Shown: piece after piece, positions 590 to 50,393 of the stretch
Layout of the letters: each line of letters starts with the position of its first letter
Position numbering within the stretch: position 1 is the first letter of the stretch
From: a bacterium
Lineage (GTDB): Bacteria > SAR324 > XYD2-FULL-50-16
DNA: 64,000 bases
NCBI GenBank assembly: GCA_032250835.1
Contig: JAVVEA010000001.1
Span: 352,001 to 416,000, forward strand
Reading direction: 5' to 3'
Position numbers and translations under genes: made by a program
Notes under the pieces: model-generated
Seen by the model: only the letters and a program-made list of their open reading frames with translations
Told to the model about the DNA's origin: nothing
Databases searched by the model: none

Positions 590-2755
590 ATGGATCTCTT
601 CGATTTCGCCGCCGAGGAACGCGAACGCCGCCAAGCCCCCTTGGCCGCAAGGATGCGCCCGGCCAACCTAGAGCAATTTATCGGCCAGGAGCATATCTTA
701 GGTCCCGGTCGGTTGCTGCGCCGGGCGATCTTGGCCGACCAGTTGACCAGCCTGATCTTTTATGGCCCACCGGGCACGGGCAAGACCACCTTGGCCCGGA
801 TCATCGCCGGGCACACCCAGTCGCAATTTATCGCCATCAACGCCGTCTTGGCGGGCATCAAAGACATCCGCGAAGCCATCGCCAGCGCCGAGACGCTTTC
901 GAAAGAGCAGGGTCGGCGTAGCATCTTGTTCATTGACGAGGTCCACCGCTTCAATAAAGCCCAGCAAGACGCCCTCTTGCCCCATGTCGAGCGCGGGTTG
1001 CTGGTCCTGGTGGGCGCGACCACCGAAAATCCCTACTTCGAGGTCAACAAAGCGCTGGTTAGCCGCTCTAGGATCTTTGAGCTCAAGAGCCTTGAAGACC
1101 AGCACCTAGTGGCCATCCTCAAACAAGCCCTGGCCGATGAGGAACGTGGCTTTGGGGGCCGCCCGGTAGAGGTCCTTCCCGAGGCGTTACTCCATCTGGC
1201 CCAGGTAGCCTCAGGCGACGCCCGCGCCGCGCTCAACGCGCTGGAATTGGCGGTGGTTTCGACGGAGCCTGACGCCCAAGGAGTCACCCACGTAGATTTA
1301 AGCATAGCCGAAGAGTCAATCCAGCGCAAAGCAGTGCTTTACGATAAAGACGGCGACGCCCATTTTGATGTGGCCTCGGCGTTCATTAAGTCACTGCGCG
1401 GCTCGGACCCCGACGCAGCGCTCTACTGGATGGCCAAAATGCTCTACGCCGGAGAAGACCCGCGCTTTTTGTTTCGGCGGATGATCATTTTCGCCAGTGA
1501 AGATGTGGGGATGGCGGACCCCAAGGCCTTAGAACAGGTGATTTCGGCGGCTCGATCTTATGACTACGTGGGCCTGCCCGAAGGCCGTTTCCCTCTGGCT
1601 CAAGCCTGTATCTATCTGGCCACCGCCCCCAAAAGCAACAGCGCCTTCGCTTTTTTCGACGCCCTCAAATCGGTAGAAAAGGAGCGGGCCGGTGAGGTCC
1701 CCAACCACTTAAAAGACGCCAGCCGGGACGCAGACGATTTGGGCCACGGTAAGGGATACCTCTACCCTCATGCCTTCCGCGACCATTGGGTGGCCCAGCA
1801 ATATCTCCCCAGCGGATTGCAGGGGCGGCTTTTTTACCAGCCCAGCGAGATCGGCTATGAAGCCCAGATCAAAGATCAGGTGGAGGCGCGCCGCGAAACC
1901 CAACTAGCCGCCATGTTAGCAGCAGGCAAAGCAGGGACCCAGGCCTGGGAGGAGCGTAGCCTTGAGGGCGGCGGGGAGCTACTAGCCCAAGTGCGCCACC
2001 ATCTCTTTGAAGGGATCGAGTTGGGGCGCGAGCCCCTAACACTCTGCTTAAATGAATCCAGCGGGATCTTGCTCGGTCAATTATGCCGTTTGGCTCCTTT
2101 AGGCAGCCACCATGCACAAACCGAAACGGACGAAGGGGCGGCGATTTTAAGGGCCCAATTCCAACGCGGACGCCTAGAGGACCCTCAAATACATTCCGGG
2201 GCCCTGCCTGGGGTGTTGGCGCAACTGGGCCAAGGGGGCTTAAGTTTCGAGTGGATCTTTGCCTTAGAGCCCGACCCGCAAAACTTCGCGGAGCTGGCTC
2301 AGCTCCTGGCACCGAAGGGACAGCTGGTCTTCGCTAGACGGCTACCCCAACAGGGGCAACGCCTTTCGGCTTGGATGTCCGAAGAGTTTAAGCAGAGTGG
2401 GGCCGGTAAAGCGTTTTTGGGCCTAGAGGAAGAGCTTTTTAAGGACCCCAACAACCCAAAGATGGCCTGGGACGAAGCCAAATTGGCGGAGCAGTTAAAC
2501 CAGGTGGGATTGTTGCCCCAAGGGGCCGGAGTGCAACAGCTCGAATATCCGGTGCGGGTCACCGAAGAGCGCTTACAAAGCTGGTTTGAACCGACCAGAC
2601 CTTTTAGCTATGGGGAACGACTAAAAGGCCTGGGGGCTTTGGAGTCCAAGGAAATAACGGGTCACCTTCGCAACATGACCCTCGGCCAAAGGCTCCCATG
2701 GAAGAGCCCTTGGACCTTTTTTCGGGCCCTAAAGCCCGAATCCGATCCAGACTAA
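590..2755 (+). CDS. rarA: Replication-associated recombination protein RarA/MgsA with long C-terminal extension
   Basis: PLAARMRP, Walker [45 protein letters not shown]; about 280 extra C-terminal residues. Confidence 0.95.
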
Positions 2756-3105
2756 GAAACCTTCAAGGGAAGGCCCGCCTGATACCAGCTCATCACGCCG
2801 CCGGTAACGTTAAAGGCTTGATCAAAGCCTTTATCCTTCAGCATAGCCGCCGCCGTGAAGCTCCGGTTGCCTGAACGGCAAATCACCAAGATTTCTTTGC
2901 CTTTATGCTCTTCTAATTCATGGATTTTTCCGGCCAAGTCTTGCACGGGGATCAGCACGCTACCTTCCACATGGGCTTGCTGGTATTCGGCTGCGGTGCG
3001 CACATCAAGCATGAACACCTCGTTGGGCTTCGTCGAAAAGCGTGAGTGGGCCTCTTCAACCGTCACTTCGTTTACAGAGGAGAAGCCTTTCATGAATCCG
3101 AACAT
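2752..3105 (-). CDS. Rhodanese-like sulfurtransferase domain protein
   Basis: LDVRTAAEY..AHVEGS and active-site loop ICRSGNRS. Confidence 0.9.
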   Translation of the reverse strand: MFGFMKGFSSVNEVTVEEAHSRFSTKPNEVFMLDVRTAAEYQQAHVEGSVLIPVQDLAGKIHELEEHKGKEILVICRSGNRSFTAAAMLKDKGFDQAFNVTGGVMSWYQAGLPLKVS

Positions 3106-3185
3106 ACACCATCCTATATCTAGGTTACCAAACTGCGATGCAACTTGCTATATCGCAATATATGAATATAATTTATTCTTCCTTG

Positions 3186-4307
3186 TCAGTTTTGTCTAGC
3201 CCAAAAATAAGCTGTTAATTCATCGGCCAAGAGCAATCCTTGCGGAGTTAAGGAGAGCCGACCCCCAGCCAATTTGAGCCAGCCTGCCTGTTGGGCCCGT
3301 TCAAAGTCAGGTCCCCATTGCAGGTTAAAGTCCGCTAACAAAACCCCTTCGGGCCGCCTCAAGCCCAACATCCAGGCCTCGGACTGGGCTTCTTCTGCCC
3401 CTAAGACTTCGTCTAAATCCCAGGGAAGCTGCGCTGATTTTAGCCCCTGGCGGTATTCTTTTAGGCGGCGGTGGTTGGCGTAGCGTTGGTCGTCTACCAA
3501 GCCATGAGCCCCCATTCCCAAGCCTAAATAATTTTCCCGATTCCAGTTGGATTGATTTTGGCGTGACTCAAAACCCGCAAGAGCAAAGTTGCTTACCTCA
3601 TATTGCCGCATTCCGGCCTGCCTAATCTGTTCGATAGATTGCAAGTAGGCTGCGGCAATGTCCTTTTCTTGCGCTTGAACCCAGGCCGCCCACTGGGGCT
3701 TAACGGCCAGCTTGCTGCCCGCCTCGATGCTGAGCGCGTACAGTGAAAGGTGGGTGGCCCCGCTGGCCAAGGCTCCTTTTATGTCCGCCCTAAGCTGAGC
3801 CGGGCTTTGGCCTGGATAACCAAAAATAAGGTCTAGGTTAAAGTCCTTCAACCCGGCGGCCTCTAAAGCCTCTAAGGCCCGGTGGTTGTCCTTTGGCCCG
3901 TGCACGCGGCCTAGGGCCTTGAGGCAACCGGCGTCAAAGCTTTGTACCCCCAGGCTCACGCGGTTGACGCCTAGCGCCTTAAGCCCCTTGGCGTAAGCGA
4001 GGTCTACATCTTCGGGGTTGAGCTCCATACTGACTTGCACCGCAGGACCCAAATCCGGCAGCATAGCCAAGAGCGATTCTAACTCAGCTAAGCTTAAGCG
4101 GGATGGGGTCCCGCCGCCCAAATAGACGGACCGAAGGGGTGCAAAATCTAGCGCAAAGCGCTGGCCCAGCAAAGCCCACTCAGCCCGCATCAACTCCAGA
4201 TAAAAGTCTTTTTCCCGACCCCGGTCTTTGAGCACCGCAAAAGCACAAAAAGGACAAATTTCTCGGCAGAAAGGCAGGTGTAGGTAGATCGAATAAATGG
4301 GGCTCAC
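3186..4307 (-). CDS. hemW: Radical SAM heme chaperone HemW (HemN-like)
   Basis: YLHLPFCREICPFC (CxxxCxxC), GGGTPS, RVSLGVQSF, YEVSNFA, YLGLGMGAHG. Confidence 0.88.
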   Translation of the reverse strand: MSPIYSIYLHLPFCREICPFCAFAVLKDRGREKDFYLELMRAEWALLGQRFALDFAPLRSVYLGGGTPSRLSLAELESLLAMLPDLGPAVQVSMELNPEDVDLAYAKGLKALGVNRVSLGVQSFDAGCLKALGRVHGPKDNHRALEALEAAGLKDFNLDLIFGYPGQSPAQLRADIKGALASGATHLSLYALSIEAGSKLAVKPQWAAWVQAQEKDIAAAYLQSIEQIRQAGMRQYEVSNFALAGFESRQNQSNWNRENYLGLGMGAHGLVDDQRYANHRRLKEYRQGLKSAQLPWDLDEVLGAEEAQSEAWMLGLRRPEGVLLADFNLQWGPDFERAQQAGWLKLAGGRLSLTPQGLLLADELTAYFWARQN

Positions 4308-11576: not shown

Positions 11577-12755
11577 ATGTCACATTCCTTTAAAGCCCCC
11601 CGAGGGTTTCGCTTCGCCGGAATCACGGCGGGCATCAAACAATCAGGCAAAAAAGACTTAGGGTTGGTCCTGCTTGAGCGCCCCGGCGCTATGGGCGGGG
11701 TCTACACTAAAAACAAATTCCCTTCGGCGCACGTAGACTATTGCCGTAGCCTCACCCCCACTGACCGTTTCGCGGCCTTGGTGGTCAACTCAGGCAACGC
11801 CAATGCCGCCACCGGGGAAGAGGGACGCCGCCGTAATTTGGAATTTGCCCAGCTCTTTGCCGATCACTTAGACCTACACTTTGATCAGGTCTTCACCTCT
11901 TCAACCGGAGTGATCGGCCACCAGCTACCCATCGACACCATCCGCACCACTTCTAAGCAGGTGATCGACAGCCTCGGCACCGACCCCATGCCCTTCGCTG
12001 AGGCGATCACCACCACTGACCTGACCACCAAGATGGCCCAGCGTAGCCTAGAGATCGGCGGCGAGAGCTTTCATATCTTGGGTGTCGCCAAGGGTTCGGG
12101 GATGATCATGCCCAATATGGGCACCATGTTGGCCTATATCTTTACCGATGCACCGCTGCCGCCAGAGCGCATCCAAGAGTTAACCCGGGAAGTGGCCGAC
12201 CAAAGCTTCAACTTAGTCAGTGTGGACGGCGACAGCTCCACCAACGACACCTTGATGGTGGTCACCAACAACCCCGGCCCGACCACGGCCTATGAGCGGA
12301 CCGAACGGGCGATTTTAGAGGTCGCTCAGGAATTGGCCCAAATGGTCGCCGCTGACGGCGAAGGGGCCGAGCACCTAATTGAGGTTTCGGTGACCAGCGC
12401 TCCGGACCGAGGCATCGCCAAACGGGCGGTGATGGCGGTGCTCAACTCGCCGCTGGTCAAGACGGCGGTACATGGCCAAGACCCCAACTGGGGCCGTTTG
12501 ATGATGGCTTTGGGCAACGGCTTAGAGCCTGTCGATGGATTTTGGCACCAACCGGTCACTATCTCGATCCAAGGGGTTCCGGTGTTCGTAGCCGGAGAAC
12601 CGGCAGCCTTCGAGCGCAAACAGCTAAGCCAGAAAATGGGTGAGTTTAAGGTCCGCATCGACATCGACCTTGCCGCTGGTGAATCCAGCCTAGTCGGTTG
12701 GGGTTGTGACCTGTCGCGCGAATACATCACCATCAACGCCGACTACCACACCTGA
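11577..12755 (+). CDS. argJ: Bifunctional ornithine acetyltransferase ArgJ
   Basis: NSGNANAATG, STGVIG, AKGSGMIMPNMGTML, VDGDSSTND, DGEGA, DPNWGR, YITINADY. Confidence 0.97.
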   Translation: MSHSFKAPRGFRFAGITAGIKQSGKKDLGLVLLERPGAMGGVYTKNKFPSAHVDYCRSLTPTDRFAALVVNSGNANAATGEEGRRRNLEFAQLFADHLDLHFDQVFTSSTGVIGHQLPIDTIRTTSKQVIDSLGTDPMPFAEAITTTDLTTKMAQRSLEIGGESFHILGVAKGSGMIMPNMGTMLAYIFTDAPLPPERIQELTREVADQSFNLVSVDGDSSTNDTLMVVTNNPGPTTAYERTERAILEVAQELAQMVAADGEGAEHLIEVSVTSAPDRGIAKRAVMAVLNSPLVKTAVHGQDPNWGRLMMALGNGLEPVDGFWHQPVTISIQGVPVFVAGEPAAFERKQLSQKMGEFKVRIDIDLAAGESSLVGWGCDLSREYITINADYHT

Positions 12756-39485: not shown

Positions 39486-39649
39486 AGGTTCCAAAAAGGG
39501 TATTATACCCCTGGGCCCGCCCTCTTCCCCCAACCACTGGGGGGCGGGTTCCCCTTTACTGCAAATTCCCCCCCATTGCGCTTTTTCCAGCTTTGTGCAA
39601 AGCTGAGCGTCCACCGAAAAAAAATGACCCCGATCCCCGTATAACGGAG

Positions 39650-40210
39650 ATGTACAGCACTAACGAATTCCGCAAGGGCCTCCGCATTGAGGTTGACGGC
39701 AACCCCTACATCATCGTAGAGAACCAGTTCGTCAAGCCCGGCAAGGGCCAGGCCTTCAACCGCGTAAGGATCAAAAACCTGCTCAACGGCAACACCATCG
39801 AGCGGACCATGAAGTCCGGCGAAAAAGTGCCCAAGGCGGATATTGTCGATAAAGAGATGCAATATCTCTATCTAGACGGCGACAAATACCACTTCATGGA
39901 CACCCAAACCTATGAGCAGATCGAACTGACCAAAGATCAGCTAGGTGACAACTGGGCGTGGCTGAAAGAACAAATGATGTGTCAAGTCATGCTGTACCGG
40001 GGCGTCGCGGTTTCCGTCGAGGTTCCCAACTTTGTGGAACTCGAAATCACCTACTGCGAGCCAGGTATTAAGGGCGATACAGCCACCAACACCACCAAGC
40101 CCGCCGACATGGAAACGGGCGCACAGGTTCAGGTGCCTCTTTTCGTTACCCAGGGCGAGAAGATCAAGATCGACACCCGCACCGGCCAATATGTGGAGCG
40201 GGTCATGTAG
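39650..40210 (+). CDS. efp: Elongation factor P
   Basis: Start at ATG 39650 (MYSTNEFRKG); KPGKG modification loop; PGIKGDT; VPLFV..GE.I.IDTR. Confidence 0.97.
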   Translation: MYSTNEFRKGLRIEVDGNPYIIVENQFVKPGKGQAFNRVRIKNLLNGNTIERTMKSGEKVPKADIVDKEMQYLYLDGDKYHFMDTQTYEQIELTKDQLGDNWAWLKEQMMCQVMLYRGVAVSVEVPNFVELEITYCEPGIKGDTATNTTKPADMETGAQVQVPLFVTQGEKIKIDTRTGQYVERVM

Positions 40211-41128
40211 ATGCCTTCTCGCGCTCTTAAGGCGCGGGCCGATCTACTGACGCGGCTGCGTCACTTTTTTGCACAGCGGGGGCTGACCGAGGTCAGCACC
40301 CCGCTGCTCTGCTCCTACCCCAACCTAGAAGCTCATATCGACCCGGTCCCAGCAGGCTCAAACCGCTGGCTGCCCAGTTCTCCCGAATATGCCATGAAAC
40401 GCCTGTTGGCGGCTGGCTCGGGATCGATCTACCAGATTTGTCCGGCCTTCCGTTTGGGCGAGTTGGGCGCTAAACACCAGCCTGAATTCACGCTCTTAGA
40501 GTTTTATCTAGTCGCCCAGGATCATTGGGGCCTGATGGACTTTGTGGACCAACTGCTGCAAGAGGTTTTAGGTTGGCCTGCGGCCCAGCGGATTGATTAT
40601 GCAGAGGTCTTTAGAGATACCCTGGGCATCAACGCCTTGGCCTTAGAGATGGACGCCTTCGCTAAGGCCTTAAAATCGCGCCAAATGGCGGTTCCTGAAT
40701 TTCTGATGACCGCCAACACCACCCAAACGGACCGGCTGGATTACCTCTTTTCGACGTTGATCGAACCCGATTTAGGTACCGACCGGCCGGTTTTGTTGAC
40801 CGGTTATCCCCCCTTTATGGCCGCGCTGGCACGCATAGACCAAGGGCGCGCCGCGAGGTTCGAGGTCTTTTACCGGGGACTGGAGTTAGGCAATGGTTTT
40901 TGGGAGCTTAAAGACCCCGCTGAACAGCGAGCCCGCTTTGAAGAAGCCAACCGCCAAAGGGTAGCTGCGGGAAAGTCGGCCTATGGGGTAGACGAACGAT
41001 TCTTGGCCTGCTTAGACCAATTGCCAGATTGTGCGGGAATCGCCCTAGGTTTAGACCGCCTGCTGATGCTTTGGCTGGGCGTTGATTCTATCGACCAGGT
41101 TTTAACCTTGCCTTGGGATCAAATCTAA
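40211..41128 (+). CDS. epmA: EF-P lysine aminoacylase EpmA (GenX/PoxA)
   Basis: SPEYAMKRLLAAG, FR..E...H.PEFT.LE, RFE....LELGNGF.EL, GIALGLDRL; abuts efp. Confidence 0.95.
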   Translation: MPSRALKARADLLTRLRHFFAQRGLTEVSTPLLCSYPNLEAHIDPVPAGSNRWLPSSPEYAMKRLLAAGSGSIYQICPAFRLGELGAKHQPEFTLLEFYLVAQDHWGLMDFVDQLLQEVLGWPAAQRIDYAEVFRDTLGINALALEMDAFAKALKSRQMAVPEFLMTANTTQTDRLDYLFSTLIEPDLGTDRPVLLTGYPPFMAALARIDQGRAARFEVFYRGLELGNGFWELKDPAEQRARFEEANRQRVAAGKSAYGVDERFLACLDQLPDCAGIALGLDRLLMLWLGVDSIDQVLTLPWDQI

Positions 41129-41540: not shown

Positions 41541-42161
41541 CTACCCCCTGCGCAAATCAAAGCCTTGGTAATTAAGCTGCTTAAGCCAGCCTTCGGCTTC
41601 GGCAGAGGTTTCGTCAGCACAACTCGCCACCACCACCGCCGCCTCACTTTGGGTGAGCATCTGCCTAAAAAGCTCCTGCATCGGCGGGTCTAGCGGTCGT
41701 TTATGTAGTTCACTGATCAATATAAGCCCACTTTCTTGGAAGGCCAGGGCGCAGAGCACAAAACGGAGTTTGTCTTCGCCATGGAGCTTATAGATCGGGA
41801 AATGCCGTAGATGCCAAGCTTTGATCTGCTCCATCAGGTGCCGCTTGGCGGTACGGCGTCCGCCGAGGCGGGTGAAAGGTTCGGATTCTAAAGCTAGATA
41901 ACCTCCGGCATGACGCCGGTATACCTTTTCGCCGAGCAGCAATCGGTCAGACTGGCAAAGATACTCTCTCGCTTTGGTCACCACCCCACGATCTGGCCGG
42001 TAGCGGCCCTCTAAGATACCAAACAGGCAATTGAGCTGGTCGCGGTGGTCAAATAGGAGGTGGTAGCGCCGCCCCGATTCGATTTCTAAGCTAACCCGTT
42101 GCAGCCCAAATTCCTCACCAGCAAAAAGATCTATATTAGAGAGCTGTGCCACCAAGGCCAT
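41541..42161 (-). CDS. Degenerate ABC-ATPase-like protein
   Basis: ABC fold remnants (LQRVSLEIESG, GRYRPDRG, KLHGEDKLR, LILISE) with no intact Walker A, LSGGQ or Walker B. Confidence 0.6.
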   Translation of the reverse strand: MALVAQLSNIDLFAGEEFGLQRVSLEIESGRRYHLLFDHRDQLNCLFGILEGRYRPDRGVVTKAREYLCQSDRLLLGEKVYRRHAGGYLALESEPFTRLGGRRTAKRHLMEQIKAWHLRHFPIYKLHGEDKLRFVLCALAFQESGLILISELHKRPLDPPMQELFRQMLTQSEAAVVVASCADETSAEAEGWLKQLNYQGFDLRRG

Positions 42162-44195: not shown

Positions 44196-44288
44196 TTAAG
44201 TCCTTTTAAGCCTCCATCATCTCTTATTCTTTCTTGCTACACCGCCTTCTGCGGTGCCGTTCCTGAAACCCCGGTCGGGAGCCGTGTC
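44192..44288 (+). promoter_or_regulatory. Putative promoter and structured 5' leader of the polyamine operon
   Basis: TTGATT-17-CATCAT; hairpins CACCGC/GCGGTG (44240-44256) and TTCCTGA/TCGGGAG (44260-44281), the second covering the GGGAG RBS. Confidence 0.4.
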
Positions 44289-45581
44289 TTGAGACAAGTC
44301 ATCCATATCATTGCGGAATATATCGGCTGTAAAGCCAACCACGAGCTTTTCACCAATCTCGATGCGTTGATGGCAACGCTTCGCGAGGAAGTCCGCAAAG
44401 CTGGTTTAGAAACAGTTGCCGAAGCTGGTTATTCCTTCGGTGAAGGCTGCGGGGTTACGGGCAGTATTGTACTGGCCGAATCTCACATGAATATCCACAC
44501 CTGGCCTGAGCGGGATTTTTATTGCAACATCGATATTTCGGTCTGCAATTATTCCTGCGACAACTTTCCTAAAGCCCTCGATTTGGCGAATGCGCTCAAG
44601 ACGGTTTTCAAGCCCCTGGACGTTAACGAAAAAATCATTAAAGGCTACCGCGACTTTGAAGACGACAAGTACACCGAGTACTTCTCCTCTGACAGCGGAT
44701 TCTTCATCAAGCCCAATCAGGTGCTGTACCGCAGCGCTGATGAGCTCCAGCAGGTTGAAGTATACGACACCAAAGACTTCGGTCGGGTGCTGCGCATCGA
44801 CAACTTCTTCCAGACCTCTGAACGTGACGAGGCCTTCTACCATGAGCCCCTGATCCACCCGGCCATGATCGCGCACCCCAACCCTGAAAAGGTGTTGATC
44901 ATTGGTGCTGGCGACGGCGGCGTGTTGCACAACGTGCTCAAGCACAAGTGCGTTAAAAAAGCGGTGATGGTCGAAATCTCTGACATGGTCATTGAAGTCT
45001 CTAAGAAGTACCTGCCGATGGTACACAAAGGTGCTTTCGAAGACCCACGTGCTCAGGTGATCATCCAAGACGGCTTGGAATACATCGCCGGGACCGACGA
45101 AAAGTTCGACGTGATCTTGCTAGACCTGACCGACCCGATCGGTCCGGCCCGCGCACTCTATACCAACGCATTTTATGCCAAGGTAAAGAGCGCTTTAAAA
45201 GATCAAGACGGCATTTTGGCTTTACATACCGAGTATCCCTTTTACCACCCTAAGGTATACGGACGTATCAATCAGACCCTGCGGTCTTTGTTTAAGAAAG
45301 TCACCAATGGCTTCAACTTCGTACCCATCTACGGTACGATCATGGGCTTTGGCTACTGTTCTGACCGCACGGACCCCAAAGCACTCAGCCCCGCGGAAGT
45401 ACAAAACCGCTTGGTCGAGCGCGGTGTGACCGACCTCAAGCTGTACAACAGTGAGATGCACTTTAGCTTCTTAGCCGAACCTGCTTATGTGAAGCAGATT
45501 TTGTCTCAAGAACATGAAGTGATCACCCCGGCCAAAGGGTTGGACGAATTCATGCAAACGTATAACGTTGCACGAGATTAA
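44289..45581 (+). CDS. speE: S-adenosylmethionine decarboxylase - aminopropyltransferase (SpeD-SpeE) fusion
   Basis: N-terminal about 120 aa with GVTG..VLAESH.NIHTWPE; C-terminal FGRVLRID..FQTSERDE..YHE, VLIIGAGDGG, FDVILLDLTDP; TTG start. Confidence 0.93.
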   Translation: MRQVIHIIAEYIGCKANHELFTNLDALMATLREEVRKAGLETVAEAGYSFGEGCGVTGSIVLAESHMNIHTWPERDFYCNIDISVCNYSCDNFPKALDLANALKTVFKPLDVNEKIIKGYRDFEDDKYTEYFSSDSGFFIKPNQVLYRSADELQQVEVYDTKDFGRVLRIDNFFQTSERDEAFYHEPLIHPAMIAHPNPEKVLIIGAGDGGVLHNVLKHKCVKKAVMVEISDMVIEVSKKYLPMVHKGAFEDPRAQVIIQDGLEYIAGTDEKFDVILLDLTDPIGPARALYTNAFYAKVKSALKDQDGILALHTEYPFYHPKVYGRINQTLRSLFKKVTNGFNFVPIYGTIMGFGYCSDRTDPKALSPAEVQNRLVERGVTDLKLYNSEMHFSFLAEPAYVKQILSQEHEVITPAKGLDEFMQTYNVARD

Positions 45582-45599
45582 CGGCACTCTTACCTGAGG

Positions 45600-45977
45600 T
45601 TGAGCATGAGCCAAGCAAACAACCCCGAGCCCTGGGGCTGGTCTACCTCGGTGGACCTGTATGGGTGCGATCCCGAAGCGATTCGTTCGGAAGTAAAAAT
45701 CAAAGAGTACGTCAAGCAATTGGTGGCGTTGCTCCAGATGAAAGCTTTCGGCGAAACACAGGTAGTGCATTTCGGCGAAGATGAGAAGGTTGAAGGCTTT
45801 TCGATGACCCAACTGATCGAAACCAGCCTGATTTCCGGTCATTTTGCCAACGCCAGCAACGCGGCCTATTTGGATATCTTCTCCTGCAAGGCCTATGATG
45901 CAGAAGAAGCCGCCAAATTCTCTAAAGAGTTTTTTGGTGCCAAAGAAGTCAGCATGCAAATGTTAGTGCGGCGCTAG
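45600..45977 (+). CDS. Second, divergent AdoMetDC-fold pyruvoyl-dependent decarboxylase proenzyme
   Basis: VDLYGCD, VVHFG, GFSMTQLIETSLISGHF, YLDIFSCK; start TTG 45600 or ATG 45606. Confidence 0.85.
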   Translation: MSMSQANNPEPWGWSTSVDLYGCDPEAIRSEVKIKEYVKQLVALLQMKAFGETQVVHFGEDEKVEGFSMTQLIETSLISGHFANASNAAYLDIFSCKAYDAEEAAKFSKEFFGAKEVSMQMLVRR

Positions 45978-45984
45978 TCGTCAA

Positions 45985-46024
45985 CCGGTCGAGGGCTTGC
46001 CCCTTGACCGGCCCCCGCCTTTTT
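45985..46024 (+). terminator. Hairpin closing the polyamine operon
   Basis: CCGGTCGAGGG-CTTGC-CCCTTGACCGG; T run a few bases downstream. Confidence 0.6.
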
Positions 46025-48467: not shown

Positions 48468-50393
48468 ATGAGCGCAAGAGAACTACAAAAAAGTGTTGAT
48501 CAATTCATCCGCTCACAACGACGCAAGCGGATCCAGCCGGCCGAACGGGACCTGCCTTTAACCCGACTGATTGAGGAAACGGGCCCTCTCGACCCGGATT
48601 GGGTGGAGCAGATTTCTCAATCCAAGGGGGTGGCGCCCAACCAATTCCAGCCGGGCAAGCAGGCCTTTGTCGAGGCGATCAAACGCCTCAACGGGCTCAA
48701 CGCAGCCAAACGCCTCTTTGTGCTCGAAACGATCAACCTGCTAGGTAGTCCTGATGCGATAGACAACTTGGTCACTTCCTTGTTTAACGGGAAAGCCGAA
48801 GAGCGCCGCCGCCTAGCCATGAGCTTCATCCTTTCCTTCCGGGGAACCGACCGGGTCACCGACCTATTGGTTAAGGCCAAACATCTCTTCAACGCCAAAA
48901 CCATTGACTCCCAAACTCATGGATTGGTGTCTTTCCGTTTTGAGATGGCCGAAAAGCTGATTTTGTTTTTCAGAAAGTCTTATGTGCTCGCAAGGGCCAA
49001 AGAGCTAGGCATGGACCCAGAGCTCAGCTTGGACCTACTACGAGGCATTTTAAAAGACGGCGACCTAGTCAACCTATCGAAGTTTTTGATCATTGATGAG
49101 GAGTTAAAAGAACGGTTGCCCGAAGTGATCAGTGCCATCCAATCGCACCGGATGTTGCCCATCTACGCCAAGAAGCGTTACGATTTTTTACGGGACTTTT
49201 TTGTTCATCTTTCGGAGCCAGGGAAGTTTCTGGGCGTAGATGGCTCGGACGTCTCGCGGATCTGCGCCGCCTTTTTGTGGACCAACCGGCAGTTGATCCC
49301 CCCGCAAAACTTGGTGGCCGCCATGTTAAAGACCGCCGAATATTCCCTCCCCGCTACCCGCACGCAGCTGATGAACTTCTTAGAGCAATTGGCCCCGTCG
49401 ACGGTGGATGCCTTGATCAAGGATCTTAAGGACATCTTTAAAGCGCTCATGAAAGAGCCCTATGCCGACCTAGGCGCGCTATTCGCTTCGGCCAAGTCCA
49501 AATACGACCAAGGCGAAGAAGACTTAAGCCTCTTTGGACAGGTCTATGCGGGTCTGATGGATATGAAAGCCAAGGGCTGGTTAGCCATCAAAGGAGTCGA
49601 AGAGTTTTTCGAAAAGGTGCGTCATGACCTAGGTGCCGGTGCGAACCCCCAACAGTCCCTTGACGACATCTTCAACGCCGCCCCAGACGTGGACAACGTC
49701 GAACCGCCGATGATGATCGAAAAACACTCTGAGTTCAACCGGCTGTTCCGCAAATTGCGGCCGGTCAACACCACCGTTGATGGTTTCAGAGGGCCCCGCG
49801 AAGGCGCGGGTAAACGGGCTGCCCAAGCGAATCTGCGGGTCTTTGAAAGCCAAGAAAACATGACCCAATTTAAAGAAGGCATGGAGGTCATGTTGGAGTA
49901 TTTCAGTAAAAACTGCTCGGCAATCCACGCTTATGAATTCAAGCCGCCCAAATTTCCTCGGCAGGTAATGGAGCAGCTAGGAAGCTTTCTGGCCATGGAC
50001 GAGGATGAGGAACCCCTGTTGTTGTGCTTCGGCATCACCTACTTCGAAGCCGACGGCGCGGGAGGGAGCGGAGAGATAGAGGACCTGATCACCCGGCATA
50101 TGCTGCCCTACTTCTTCACTATGGTCAGCAGCAACTTCAACACGGTGCTCCACGCCCGTAGCCGCAAGATCGATACTGATTTTAGCAATGAAGATGAGGA
50201 AGATGGAGCCTATGAAGCCAATCTGGGCATGCTGGAGTTTAAGGCCGCTGACCTGACCTACGCCGAATACTTCCGCTCCGCAGCCCAGCATTTACTAGCA
50301 CTCTTCCATGGCCTGCCTGAGCCCGCATGGCGTTCTGCCGAGGTTCAAGGTTCGGTGGCCTTTTTGTTCGACAAACTCAAGATTGCTTACTAA
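48468..50393 (+). CDS. Large cytoplasmic hypothetical protein
   Basis: 641-aa ORF 8 bp after the kinase gene; helical, no motif recognised. Confidence 0.8.

Follow-up and report, generated by a model that had tools for sequence, protein, structure and literature searches.

Two adjoining genes in a 64,000-nucleotide stretch of bacterial DNA (the window) encode proteins with the S-adenosylmethionine decarboxylase (AdoMetDC) fold, and one of the two is joined to an aminopropyltransferase. What would a genome do with two such proteins side by side? A sequence-only reading of the locus had reasoned that a second AdoMetDC would be redundant, and had proposed that the small protein supplies the amine acceptor, putrescine or agmatine, so that an amino acid and SAM could be turned into a triamine independently of PLP. 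In the list of open reading frames, a plus-strand frame of 430 residues at 44289..45581 is followed on the same strand by the small AdoMetDC-fold gene. The features of the locus are as follows.

44277..44281, plus strand: Shine-Dalgarno-like GGGAG, 7 nt before the TTG of gene 1, read from the sequence
44289..45581, plus strand: speD::speE fusion gene running from TTG to TAA and encoding 430 aa; predicted class 1b AdoMetDC plus polyamine aminopropyltransferase
44304..44624, plus strand: AdoMetDC (SpeD) domain, residues 6-112, with LAE-S65-HMNIH70-TWP73E and Cys86
44481..44483, plus strand: Ser65 codon TCT (in LAESH), where the fused SpeD is predicted to cleave itself and form its pyruvoyl group
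44667..45509, plus strand: aminopropyltransferase (SpeE) part, residues 127-407, the stretch matched by NF002010
44904 (GAGDGG), 44970 (VEIS), QDG, 45123 (DLTDP), plus strand: SpeE motifs, read from the sequence
45596..45599, plus strand: Shine-Dalgarno-like GAGG, 6 nt before the ATG at 45606
45606..45977, plus strand: speDC gene, 123 aa, TAG stop; predicted pyruvoyl-dependent L-ornithine decarboxylase of the AdoMetDC fold
45825..45827, plus strand: Ser74 codon AGC (numbered from the ATG; the Ser of IETSL), predicted Thr73/Ser74 cleavage and pyruvoyl site
45985..46024, plus strand: hairpin followed by UUUUU, 11-bp stem and 5-nt loop, from fold energy

The TTG at 44289 is the first ATG, GTG or TTG past the upstream stop. 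For the small gene, a 125-residue product and an 18-bp gap had been read, and that frame exists (45600..45977, from a TTG 18 bp past the TAA of gene 1). The ATG at 45606 is nevertheless the likelier start, which leaves TTG 45600 possible, because GAGG abuts the TTG and stands 6 nt from the ATG, and because public annotation gives the protein 123 aa; the intergenic gap is then 24 bp. The flanking genes, for an MscS-type channel upstream and a Cache/HisKA histidine kinase downstream, were dropped as members of the module. The hairpin described after the pair is present, with an 11-bp stem (45985-45995 with 46001-46011) that folds at -21.7 kcal/mol (z = -2.17; 6 of 200 shuffles were equally stable). 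Its U-run, at 46020-46024, begins 8 nt past the stem, which is why a strict terminator scan makes no call there, and it is possible that the hairpin acts as a weak intrinsic terminator of a two-gene operon. The scans returned three terminator sites against 3.3 expected, none at the end of the operon, and two promoter sites against 2.0 expected, none upstream of gene 1. Rfam gave no matches at E <= 1 between 43900 and 46400, and therefore no riboswitch or leader was found in that interval. The two genes have a GC content of about 50%, compared with 54.6% for the whole window, but they do not form a compositional island, because their neighbours between 43000 and 48000 also lie at 49-52%.

The N-terminal part of the fusion protein, residues 6-112, matches Pfam AdoMet_dc (PF02675) at 61 bits (cut-off 25), and its sequence matches in the PDB are to the T. 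maritima AdoMetDC (1tlu/1vr7), in which S63, H68 and C83 are the processing and catalytic residues (PMC10407285). No variation is seen among 15 fusion proteins at E64, S65, H66, H70, W72, P73, E74 or C86, and the ESH..HTWPE motif is kept in 119 of the 120 fusion homologues listed. The domain stays under the cut-off of the NCBIfam equivalog TIGR03330 (SAM_DCase_Bsu; 62.0 bits, with 75.65 required), of whose 112 positions 6-89 are covered. Because the domain is divergent and also fused, we based its functional assignment on residues and clade instead of this model; it branches on the SpeD side of the tree of AdoMetDC-fold domains described below, and on these grounds it appears to be a bona fide, though divergent, class 1b AdoMetDC. 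Predicted cleavage at Ser65, whose TCT codon lies at 44481 exactly as first read, would give a 64-aa β chain and a 366-aa α chain that bears the transferase.

The C-terminal part matches Pfam Spermine_synt_N (PF17284) and Spermine_synth (PF01564, 178.9 bits) and passes two NCBIfam equivalogs, NF002010 at 313.9 bits (cut-off 260) and TIGR00417 speE at 257.2 bits (cut-off 249.55). Pfam and NCBIfam thus agree with the original description of an AdoMetDC domain fused to an aminopropyltransferase. Residues G206, G208, D209, G210, G211, E229, D261, G262, D279 and D282-P283 are invariant in the 15 fusion proteins, and DLTDP has the form D-x-x-D-P, which we take to be a catalytic-type motif of aminopropyltransferases. 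By sequence, this part is predicted to be a polyamine aminopropyltransferase that keeps its dcAdoMet and catalytic motifs.

Which polyamine it makes is a separate matter. The sequence-only reading had taken GAGDGG and EISD as deviations from consensus and signs that the product need not be spermidine. The motifs are indeed there. Among the 120 listed homologues, GAGDGG occurs in 6 and GGGDGG in 114; VEIS occurs in one, the window enzyme itself, beside VEID in 100 and VELD in 5, with the pattern unmatched in 14. The Ala of GAGDGG is common to the closest kin only, and the Ser of VEIS, at position 231 where at least 90% of the 15 fusion proteins have Asp, is a one-off in this genome. As an argument about product, however, these deviations are weak, as the residues by which such enzymes are sorted are kept: the motif 2 Asp, D-G-G and the motif 3 Glu. 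According to passages of PMC11107197, this combination is found in all principal spermine synthases, and no motif distinguishes the spermidine synthases.

Doubt about the product traces instead to the fusions of Ca. Pelagibacter ubique HTCC1062 and HTCC7211, in which, as passages of PMC11107197 report, the AdoMetDC and aminopropyltransferase halves are both functional and make spermidine together with spermine/thermospermine. Compared by description, these fusions and ours have the same domain order and catalytic residues in both halves; a SpeDC partner gene is not mentioned in the passages of that paper drawn on here. A delta-proteobacterial and a Krumholzibacteria fusion are likewise spermine synthases (passages of PMC12803844). 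The same pathway could then run on, with spermine or spermine/thermospermine as the main product of the fused transferase. We regard this as unlikely, though it deserves to be kept in mind: the sorting residues fit the pattern of principal spermine synthases, and the best PDB matches, 7xif (218.6 bits) and 1uir (200 bits), are substrate-flexible enzymes. The same residues also occur in spermidine synthases (same passages of PMC11107197), the window enzyme passes the cut-off of the speE spermidine synthase equivalog, and 7xif and 1uir show GGGEGA and VDID in their printed alignments, unlike the window enzyme. Further PDB matches are 1inl (192 bits) and 1iy9 (190.7 bits). Human spermine synthase, 3c6k, matches at just 40 bits and over residues 143-282 only, compared with 190-219 bits for the spermidine synthase-type and flexible chains.

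That difference in score rules out placement of the window fusion in the clade of human-type AdoMetDC-SpmSyn fusions. Passages of PMC12803844 describe these as an AdoMetDC-like N-terminus followed by an aminopropyltransferase, as in the window, with bacterial transferase domains 30-32% identical to animal SpmSyn; the validated bacterial examples have 358 and 376 aa, against 430 aa here. The close homologues of the window protein are also not the validated delta-proteobacterial spermine synthase MBW2649524, having other accessions and a different length (358 aa for that fusion, 430 aa for ours). By analogy, we consider spermidine the most likely product.

The small protein matches PF02675 more strongly than the fused domain does, at 86.7 bits (cut-off 25; residues 17-124 in the 125-aa numbering), but reaches only 36.1 bits with TIGR03330 (cut-off 75.65). 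A PDB search with its sequence gave no match at E <= 1. Its AF2 model (pLDDT 90.6) superposes on the T. maritima AdoMetDC with Foldseek TM scores of 0.81-0.86 and rmsd values of 1.5-1.8 Å. As had been read from the sequence, ESH and HTWPE are missing: IETS/LISGHF stands in their place, HFAN replaces HTWPE, and the AdoMetDC-type Pro is absent. The Ser codon, AGC, lies at 45825 as reported.

These are traits of SpeDC, a type of L-ornithine decarboxylase that carries a pyruvoyl group and descends from class 1b AdoMetDC (Li, Liang, Phillips, Michael, J Biol Chem 2023, PMC10407285). In that work, Gln, Thr, Phe and Tyr are diagnostic of SpeDC beside Ser/His/Cys, and one Pro is conserved only in true AdoMetDC. 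The validated SpeDC of Methanogenium cariaci, WP_062398326, acts on L-ornithine with a kcat/Km of 920 M-1 s-1 and is inactive on L-arginine and L-lysine; in E. coli delta-speD it failed to bring spermidine back (PMC10407285). The window protein is 59% identical to it (72 of 122 residues), and the central motif string is the same in both. A set of 15 homologues all keep S74, H79 (Ser+5), C94 (Ser+20), Q69, T73, F80 and Y88; we equate the last four with the diagnostic positions by way of invariant columns common with the validated enzyme, not from the published figure. The pattern Q.I.TS....HF.......Y.....C fits 85 of 87 collected SpeDC-like sequences. In a tree of 132 AdoMetDC-fold domains, whose references include one biochemically validated SpeDC (M. 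cariaci) and no validated SpeDA, a branch with SH-aLRT 100 separates 86 SpeDC-like rows, among them the window small protein and that of M. cariaci, from 46 SpeD rows that include the window fused domain. By these sequence criteria, the assignment of the small protein as SpeDC is supported, with L-ornithine as its probable substrate and putrescine rather than agmatine as its probable product. Cleavage is predicted between Thr73 and Ser74 and would yield a 73-aa β chain and a 50-aa α chain.

We then asked what else the genome (3.66 Mb, 97.2% complete) could use to make polyamines. PF02675 has two matches genome-wide, the fused domain and the small protein. At this completeness we found no SpeA or SpeC and no arginase-fold SpeB, agmatine deiminase, PvlArgDC or DHS/SpeY; nspC (CASDC) had no match at cut-off, and the AAT-fold decarboxylase family reached 22.7 bits against a cut-off of 27. 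Two alanine-racemase-fold decarboxylases are encoded. One is LysA (357.6 bits, cut-off 297.9). The second, on another contig, belongs to a separate operon, where it overlaps an ATP-grasp gene; it scores 222.6 bits with the lysA model (cut-off 297.9) and 213.9 with FslC (cut-off 500), and is far from reaching any of the ornithine or arginine decarboxylase models tried, although it could still be an ornithine decarboxylase. With that one further decarboxylase remaining, the genome, like identity, diagnostic residues and tree, bears out the view that the small protein is no redundant AdoMetDC and supplies the amine acceptor.

That the small protein is instead an arginine decarboxylase (SpeDA), whose agmatine the transferase aminopropylates, we judge highly improbable. 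AdoMetDC-derived arginine decarboxylases do exist, with several origins, and T. thermophilus 1uir, among the best PDB relatives of the transferase, uses agmatine. A protein of Pelagibacter phage HTVC201P near the SpeDC clade is an arginine decarboxylase (PMC10407285). Yet the window protein has all the SpeDC-type residues and shares its central motif, letter for letter, with a validated enzyme specific for ornithine, and the genome has no arginase-fold ureohydrolase or agmatine deiminase to convert agmatine or aminopropylagmatine to putrescine or spermidine. Phage proteins are also distant: a search of the phage collection with the M. cariaci SpeDC at E <= 1 returned 13 records, all at most 32% identical, and the window protein matched none at E <= 1e-5.

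We give the least credence to the idea that the small gene encodes another AdoMetDC or a non-catalytic, prozyme-like regulator of SpeD, with putrescine made by the PLP decarboxylase of the other contig: the AdoMetDC fold, the tight linkage to SpeD, the regulatory dead paralogue known in trypanosomes (PMC5201418) and the additional alanine-racemase-fold decarboxylase would suit it, but Ser/His/Cys are intact and invariant, so this is not a dead paralogue, the Pro of every true AdoMetDC is missing and validated members of the SpeDC clade failed to complement delta-speD (both PMC10407285), and the other decarboxylase stands in its separate operon, far below all ODC/ADC models tried.

Domain identities, conserved catalytic residues, clade and gene linkage in relatives are observed, and family searches of the genome turned up no further route to a diamine. 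The self-cleavage, substrates and products of both proteins are proposed by analogy, and on that footing we think it very probable that the locus is a two-gene, three-activity operon leading from L-ornithine and S-adenosylmethionine to spermidine without PLP. Ornithine would come from the arginine pathway, and ArgJ, which makes it, is encoded in the same window. SpeDC would cleave itself between Thr73 and Ser74, leaving an N-terminal pyruvoyl group, and decarboxylate L-ornithine to putrescine. The fused SpeD would cleave itself between Glu64 and Ser65 and convert SAM to dcAdoMet. SpeE would stay on the pyruvoyl-bearing α chain and join the aminopropyl group of dcAdoMet to putrescine, giving spermidine. 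The PLP-independent route to a triamine proposed at the outset is thus supported by sequence and narrowed to ornithine and putrescine rather than agmatine. The idea was right but not new, because both SpeDC and its clusters with speD and speE had been described in 2023 (PMC10407285). The public label of the small protein, "S-adenosylmethionine decarboxylase", is most likely wrong, and if it were left uncorrected the genome would seem unable to make putrescine.

With the SpeDC clusters of PMC10407285 the window has in common the fold, Ser/His/Cys plus Gln/Thr/Phe/Tyr, and the clustering with speD and speE, as well as a genome that pairs two SpeD homologues with a single SpeE and lacks a canonical ODC/ADC. 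The layouts differ. The published ones have separate genes (Atribacteria, Anaerolinea, Sumerlaeota, M. hungatei), where the window has a SpeD-SpeE fusion, or SpeD-SpeDC fusions followed by speE (Desulfotignum, Omnitrophica), where the window SpeDC stands alone. The SpeD-SpeDC fusions of Desulfotignum phosphitoxidans and Omnitrophica OLB16 (PMC10407285) spread the same three activities over two neighbouring polypeptides, but there the decarboxylases are joined and SpeE is free, whereas in the window it is the transferase that is joined to the SAM decarboxylase, with the predicted ornithine decarboxylase on its own. The terms SpeD-SpeE, SAR324 and Lambdaproteobacteria are absent from the main text of PMC10407285. 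By analogy with the covalent SpeD-SpeDC fusions, a heterodimer of free SpeDC with SpeD is conceivable. A complex prediction that paired SpeDC with residues 1-125 of the fusion (the SpeD domain), run without controls, scored 0.11 against a mark of 0.32 and so speaks neither for nor against such pairing.

The fusion architecture recurs in close homologues (P0122-P0133, 56-78% identity; accessions include MDH5561046, OGG95174/OGG97940, MDX2470378 and HVB46927). The full layout, a SpeD-SpeE fusion with a free SpeDC, was found in 6 of 18 other genomes of the family searched; all six relatives with a full-length fusion have a SpeDC-like gene directly downstream, and in a Lambdaproteobacteria MAG the accessions of fusion and small protein are adjacent. 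Elsewhere the layout is missing (0 of 80 other SpeDC loci), while speE and speD lie within 5 kb at 27 of these loci and 14 have the SpeD-SpeDC fusion. The gene layout, with SpeD fused to SpeE and not to SpeDC, is what is new; apart from it the module is ordinary and presents no new kind of biology. The PLP-free route predicted from ornithine to spermidine thus has a third gene arrangement, and the SpeDC type gains a lineage, a Lambdaproteobacteria/SAR324-like family to judge from how the nearest public proteins are named.

Outside the family, all three parts point to DPANN archaea. The speD-speE-speDC clusters of a Woesearchaeota (L013) and a Nanoarchaeota (L015) locus have the gene order of the window. 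DPANN SpeE is the nearest outside the family (42-44% identity), in a sister clade with SH-aLRT 96; DPANN SpeD is the best match outside the family (39-41% identity), and DPANN SpeDC rows are the nearest by tree path. In these clusters speD and speE are separate with overlapping ends (at L013, frames 2707-3060 and 3056-3964), encoding 118 and 303 aa where the window has one frame of 430 aa. Burkholderiales fusions are about 39% identical to the window fusion over 93-96% of its length, and their SpeE halves branch beside the clade of window and DPANN enzymes (SH-aLRT 99). The close DPANN tie of all three parts would be one more case in which entire polyamine cassettes moved between archaea and bacteria. 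A bolder reading, which we find improbable, is that the cassette was acquired horizontally and shares its ancestry with the DPANN clusters, that speD and speE merged within the family, and that SpeDC may dock on SpeD to form a three-activity complex, possibly with spermine as end product. If so, the SpeD-SpeE fusion, in contrast to the joined decarboxylases of Desulfobacteria, would pass dcAdoMet straight to the transferase, and putrescine synthesis would be separately tunable.

The module consists of two genes read in the same direction, a speD::speE fusion (AdoMetDC domain plus aminopropyltransferase) and a small AdoMetDC-fold protein that we predict to be SpeDC, a pyruvoyl L-ornithine decarboxylase. 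Its features in the window are as follows.

44289..45581, plus strand: gene 1, an ORF of 430 aa encoding the fusion
7 nt 5′ of the gene 1 TTG, plus strand: GGGAG
45600..45977, plus strand: gene 2, an ORF of 125 aa when read from TTG
45985–46011, 3′ of the pair: a hairpin with an 11-bp stem (fold −21.7 kcal/mol, z = −2.17)

The gene 1 TTG is the earliest common start codon possible in its frame. In gene 2, a GAGG adjoins the TTG directly and lies 6 nt ahead of an ATG at 45606; given this spacing and a public gene call of 123 aa, we place the start at this ATG, with 24 bp separating the genes. The hairpin is at best a weak terminator because its U-run begins 8 nt past the stem; a strict terminator scan made no call there, and an Rfam search of the gene-pair region matched no families. 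The neighbours, an MscS-type channel and a histidine kinase, look unrelated to the module. Both serine codons picked out by the sequence-only reading are exact: 44481 encodes Ser65 in LAESH, and 45825 the serine in IETSL.

AdoMetDC homologues have repeatedly become pyruvoyl-dependent arginine decarboxylases (SpeDA), and the members of one well-supported clade have become ornithine decarboxylases instead (SpeDC; Li et al., JBC 2023, PMC10407285). As described there, SpeDC retains the processing Ser, His and Cys and has a hallmark of four residues, Gln, Thr, Phe and Tyr; a Pro is retained in true AdoMetDCs. Pfam AdoMet_dc covers nearly all of the gene 2 product (86.7 bits), whose motif region reads MTQLIETSLISGHFANASNAAYLDIFSC. 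Residues Q69, T73, S74, H79, F80, Y88 and C94 are invariant across 15 diverse homologues, and the AdoMetDC-type Pro is absent from the window protein. More than 4,700 homologues are detectable; the best 120 of these, besides the protein itself, share 58–88% identity, and their names point to Lambdaproteobacteria, Deltaproteobacteria, Patescibacteria and Nanoarchaeota. Scanning species-representative genomes for the SpeDC motif turned up at least 594 loci, including one in Methanogenium cariaci JCM 10550 whose ORF is exactly WP_062398326.1. That protein is an ornithine-specific decarboxylase (kcat/Km 920 M-1 s-1; PMC10407285, Table 3), reported in the same paper as inactive on arginine and lysine and as failing to complement delta-speD. 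The window protein shares 59% identity with it (72/122) and an identical central motif.

The pattern Q.I.TS....HF.......Y.....C fits 85 of the 87 SpeDC-like sequences collected, the misses being a Val-for-Ile variant and a sequence ended by a contig edge. The sequence-only reading had suspected a second, divergent pyruvoyl decarboxylase and proposed a phylogeny. A rapid maximum-likelihood analysis of 132 AdoMetDC-fold domains supports this: a single branch (SH-aLRT 100) divides 86 SpeDC-like rows, with the small protein and that of M. cariaci among them, from 46 SpeD rows, which include the window's fused SpeD domain. An AF2 model of the small protein (pLDDT 90.6) matches T. maritima AdoMetDC with a TM-score of 0.81–0.86 at 21–22% identity. 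No nearer solved structure was found in the PDB copy searched, which thus seems to hold no SpeDC structure.

Gene content also bears on the ornithine route. In the window's own genome (assembly 3.66 Mb, 97.2% complete), genes 1 and 2 give the only AdoMet_dc matches. No arginase-fold protein, agmatine deiminase, PvlArgDC-type pyruvoyl arginine decarboxylase or DHS/SpeY was found in this genome, and neither a carboxynorspermidine decarboxylase nor an AAT-fold decarboxylase (22.7 bits against 27) rose above its cut-off. Since SpeB and AguA/AguB are missing, an arginine decarboxylase would be a dead end; their absence agrees with the rule separating speDC from speDA given in PMC10407285. ArgJ, which yields ornithine, is encoded inside the window (~11613–12752). 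A check for other ODC, ADC and agmatinase genes, also suggested earlier, came back empty save for one protein, the second of two alanine-racemase-fold decarboxylases, the other being LysA. This 450-aa protein reaches none of the curated cut-offs (lysA 222.6 bits against 297.9; FslC 213.9 against 500; speA 62.7) and lies in a separate operon, overlapping an ATP-grasp gene with a urea-transporter/M23 fusion next. It is the one loose end in taking SpeDC as the sole diamine source. The operon of ATP-grasp, decarboxylase and urea-transporter/M23-peptidase genes spans L111:5507-9941, on contig C14 outside the window, and a trehalose-6-phosphate synthase/phosphatase gene adjoins it; the operon may have some link to putrescine.

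The gene 1 product matches three Pfam families, AdoMet_dc over residues 6–112 at 61 bits, Spermine_synt_N, and Spermine_synth at 178.9 bits. It also scores above the cut-offs of two NCBIfam equivalogs, NF002010 (313.9 bits against 260) and TIGR00417 speE (257.2 against 249.55). Its SpeD domain fails the TIGR03330 equivalog (62.0 bits, cut-off 75.65). Residues E64, S65, H66, H70, W72, P73, E74 and C86 are invariant across 15 fusion proteins, and ESH..HTWPE occurs in 119 of the 120 fusion homologues listed. The SpeE half retains the Gly-rich loop with Asp209, Glu229, Asp261-Gly262 and Asp279/Asp282-Pro283. The transferase deviations pointed out earlier, GAGDGG and VEIS, are real but small: the former is common to the six closest of the 120 fusion sequences listed, the window's own counted, and the latter occurs among them in the window alone.

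Spermidine is the default prediction for the product of gene 1. Section 10 of PMC11107197 sorts aminopropyltransferases by motifs 2 and 3: most thermospermine synthases have Glu in motif 2, all principal spermine synthases in that paper combine a motif 2 Asp with D-G-G and a motif 3 Glu, and spermidine synthases are distinguished by no motif. The window transferase has Asp, D-G-G and Glu, by which spermidine and spermine synthases are inseparable; we regard spermine as improbable, though a realistic minority outcome. The same residues make a thermospermine synthase unlikely. In Pelagibacter, AdoMetDC-aminopropyltransferase fusions have both halves active and yield spermidine plus spermine/thermospermine (PMC11107197). 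The best solved relatives of the transferase are 7xif (218.6 bits), 1uir, 1inl and 1iy9; a human-type AdoMetDC-SpmSyn fusion (PMC12803844) is ruled out, as human spermine synthase scores only 40 bits.

Elsewhere in the genome (L007/L008, C22:197890-198513), Spermine_synth matches a frame of ~557 aa in two pieces (61.8 and 46.7 bits); the family's other genomes have frames of 553–628 aa, and many relatives show corresponding places. These look like the membrane-protein/aminopropyltransferase-like type, bacterial members of which were shown to be uninvolved in spermidine or spermine synthesis (PMC12803844).

Among 40 related genomes, the full-length fusion was found in 6 of the 18 from the window's family (56–78% identity) and in none of the 22 outside it. 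A SpeDC-like gene lies directly 3′ of the fusion in all six, and a public Lambdaproteobacteria MAG has the two proteins at adjacent accessions (OGG95174/OGG95173). Of 9 loci examined from two further families in the window's class, 8 carry speD and speE as separate genes, and no small gene adjoins them. The closest relative, G003, carries a small protein (L091:3016-3387) only 44% identical to the window's, though its upstream fusion is 78% identical; it has IQTS in place of IETS and keeps the Gln, Thr, Ser, His, Phe, Tyr and Cys. In G003 the SpeDC gene may have been swapped for another, or it may have changed far more quickly than the adjoining fusion. Family members without the fusion have short stand-alone AdoMetDC-like frames of 138–175 aa (G012:C64:6753-7004, G004:C42:67985-68161, G011:C261:455-697, G017:C59:6156-6383 and others) and no canonical speE match.

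None of 80 other SpeDC loci has a SpeD-SpeE fusion: 53 lack speE within 5 kb, in 14 speE comes after a SpeD-SpeDC fusion, 11 are ordered speD-speDC-speE and two speD-speE-speDC. The last two are tightly overlapping clusters in DPANN MAGs, one of Woesearchaeota (L013:2707-4331) and one of Nanoarchaeota (L015:2856-4480), and it is there that each of the module's three parts has its closest kin beyond the family. Their SpeE proteins (42–44% identity to the window's) are sister to the family's fused SpeE (SH-aLRT 96), with same-class bacterial SpeE elsewhere in the tree; their SpeDC proteins are the nearest by path outside the family in the 132-domain tree, and their SpeD proteins share 39–41% identity with the window's. 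Burkholderiales-type fusions (~39% identity) branch just outside the window and DPANN group. That all three proteins have their closest kin in these clusters suggests a whole-cassette transfer between DPANN archaea and the window's bacterial family. In the Woesearchaeota cluster the end of the speD frame runs into the start of speE (118 + 303 aa), as against the single 430-aa frame of the window, so that acquisition of the cassette followed by simple read-through fusion would be most economical, judged from quick, short-alignment trees in which long branches meet at the joins.

Every element of the module is already known. AdoMetDC-aminopropyltransferase fusions were reportedly described before the 2024 paper that treats them. 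That paper is PMC11107197; SpeDC and its clusters were published in 2023 (PMC10407285). We found no published description of a SpeD-SpeE fusion combined with SpeDC, PMC10407285 being the sole relevant match for SpeDC; the terms SpeD-SpeE, SAR324 and Lambdaproteobacteria are absent from its main text. The module extends a system described in 2023 to a new lineage and shows a fusion layout new to it; the finding is useful for annotation and its novelty modest.

Elsewhere in the window, two sizeable ORFs lack any Pfam match at E ≤ 1e-4, one at 48468–50393 (641 aa, plus strand) and one at 41541–42161 (206 aa, minus strand). At 39593–41128, a gene for elongation factor P stands directly ahead of a truncated class II lysyl-tRNA-synthetase-like gene (305 aa, tRNA-synt_2); the two resemble an EF-P lysylation pair of the EpmA/PoxA type.
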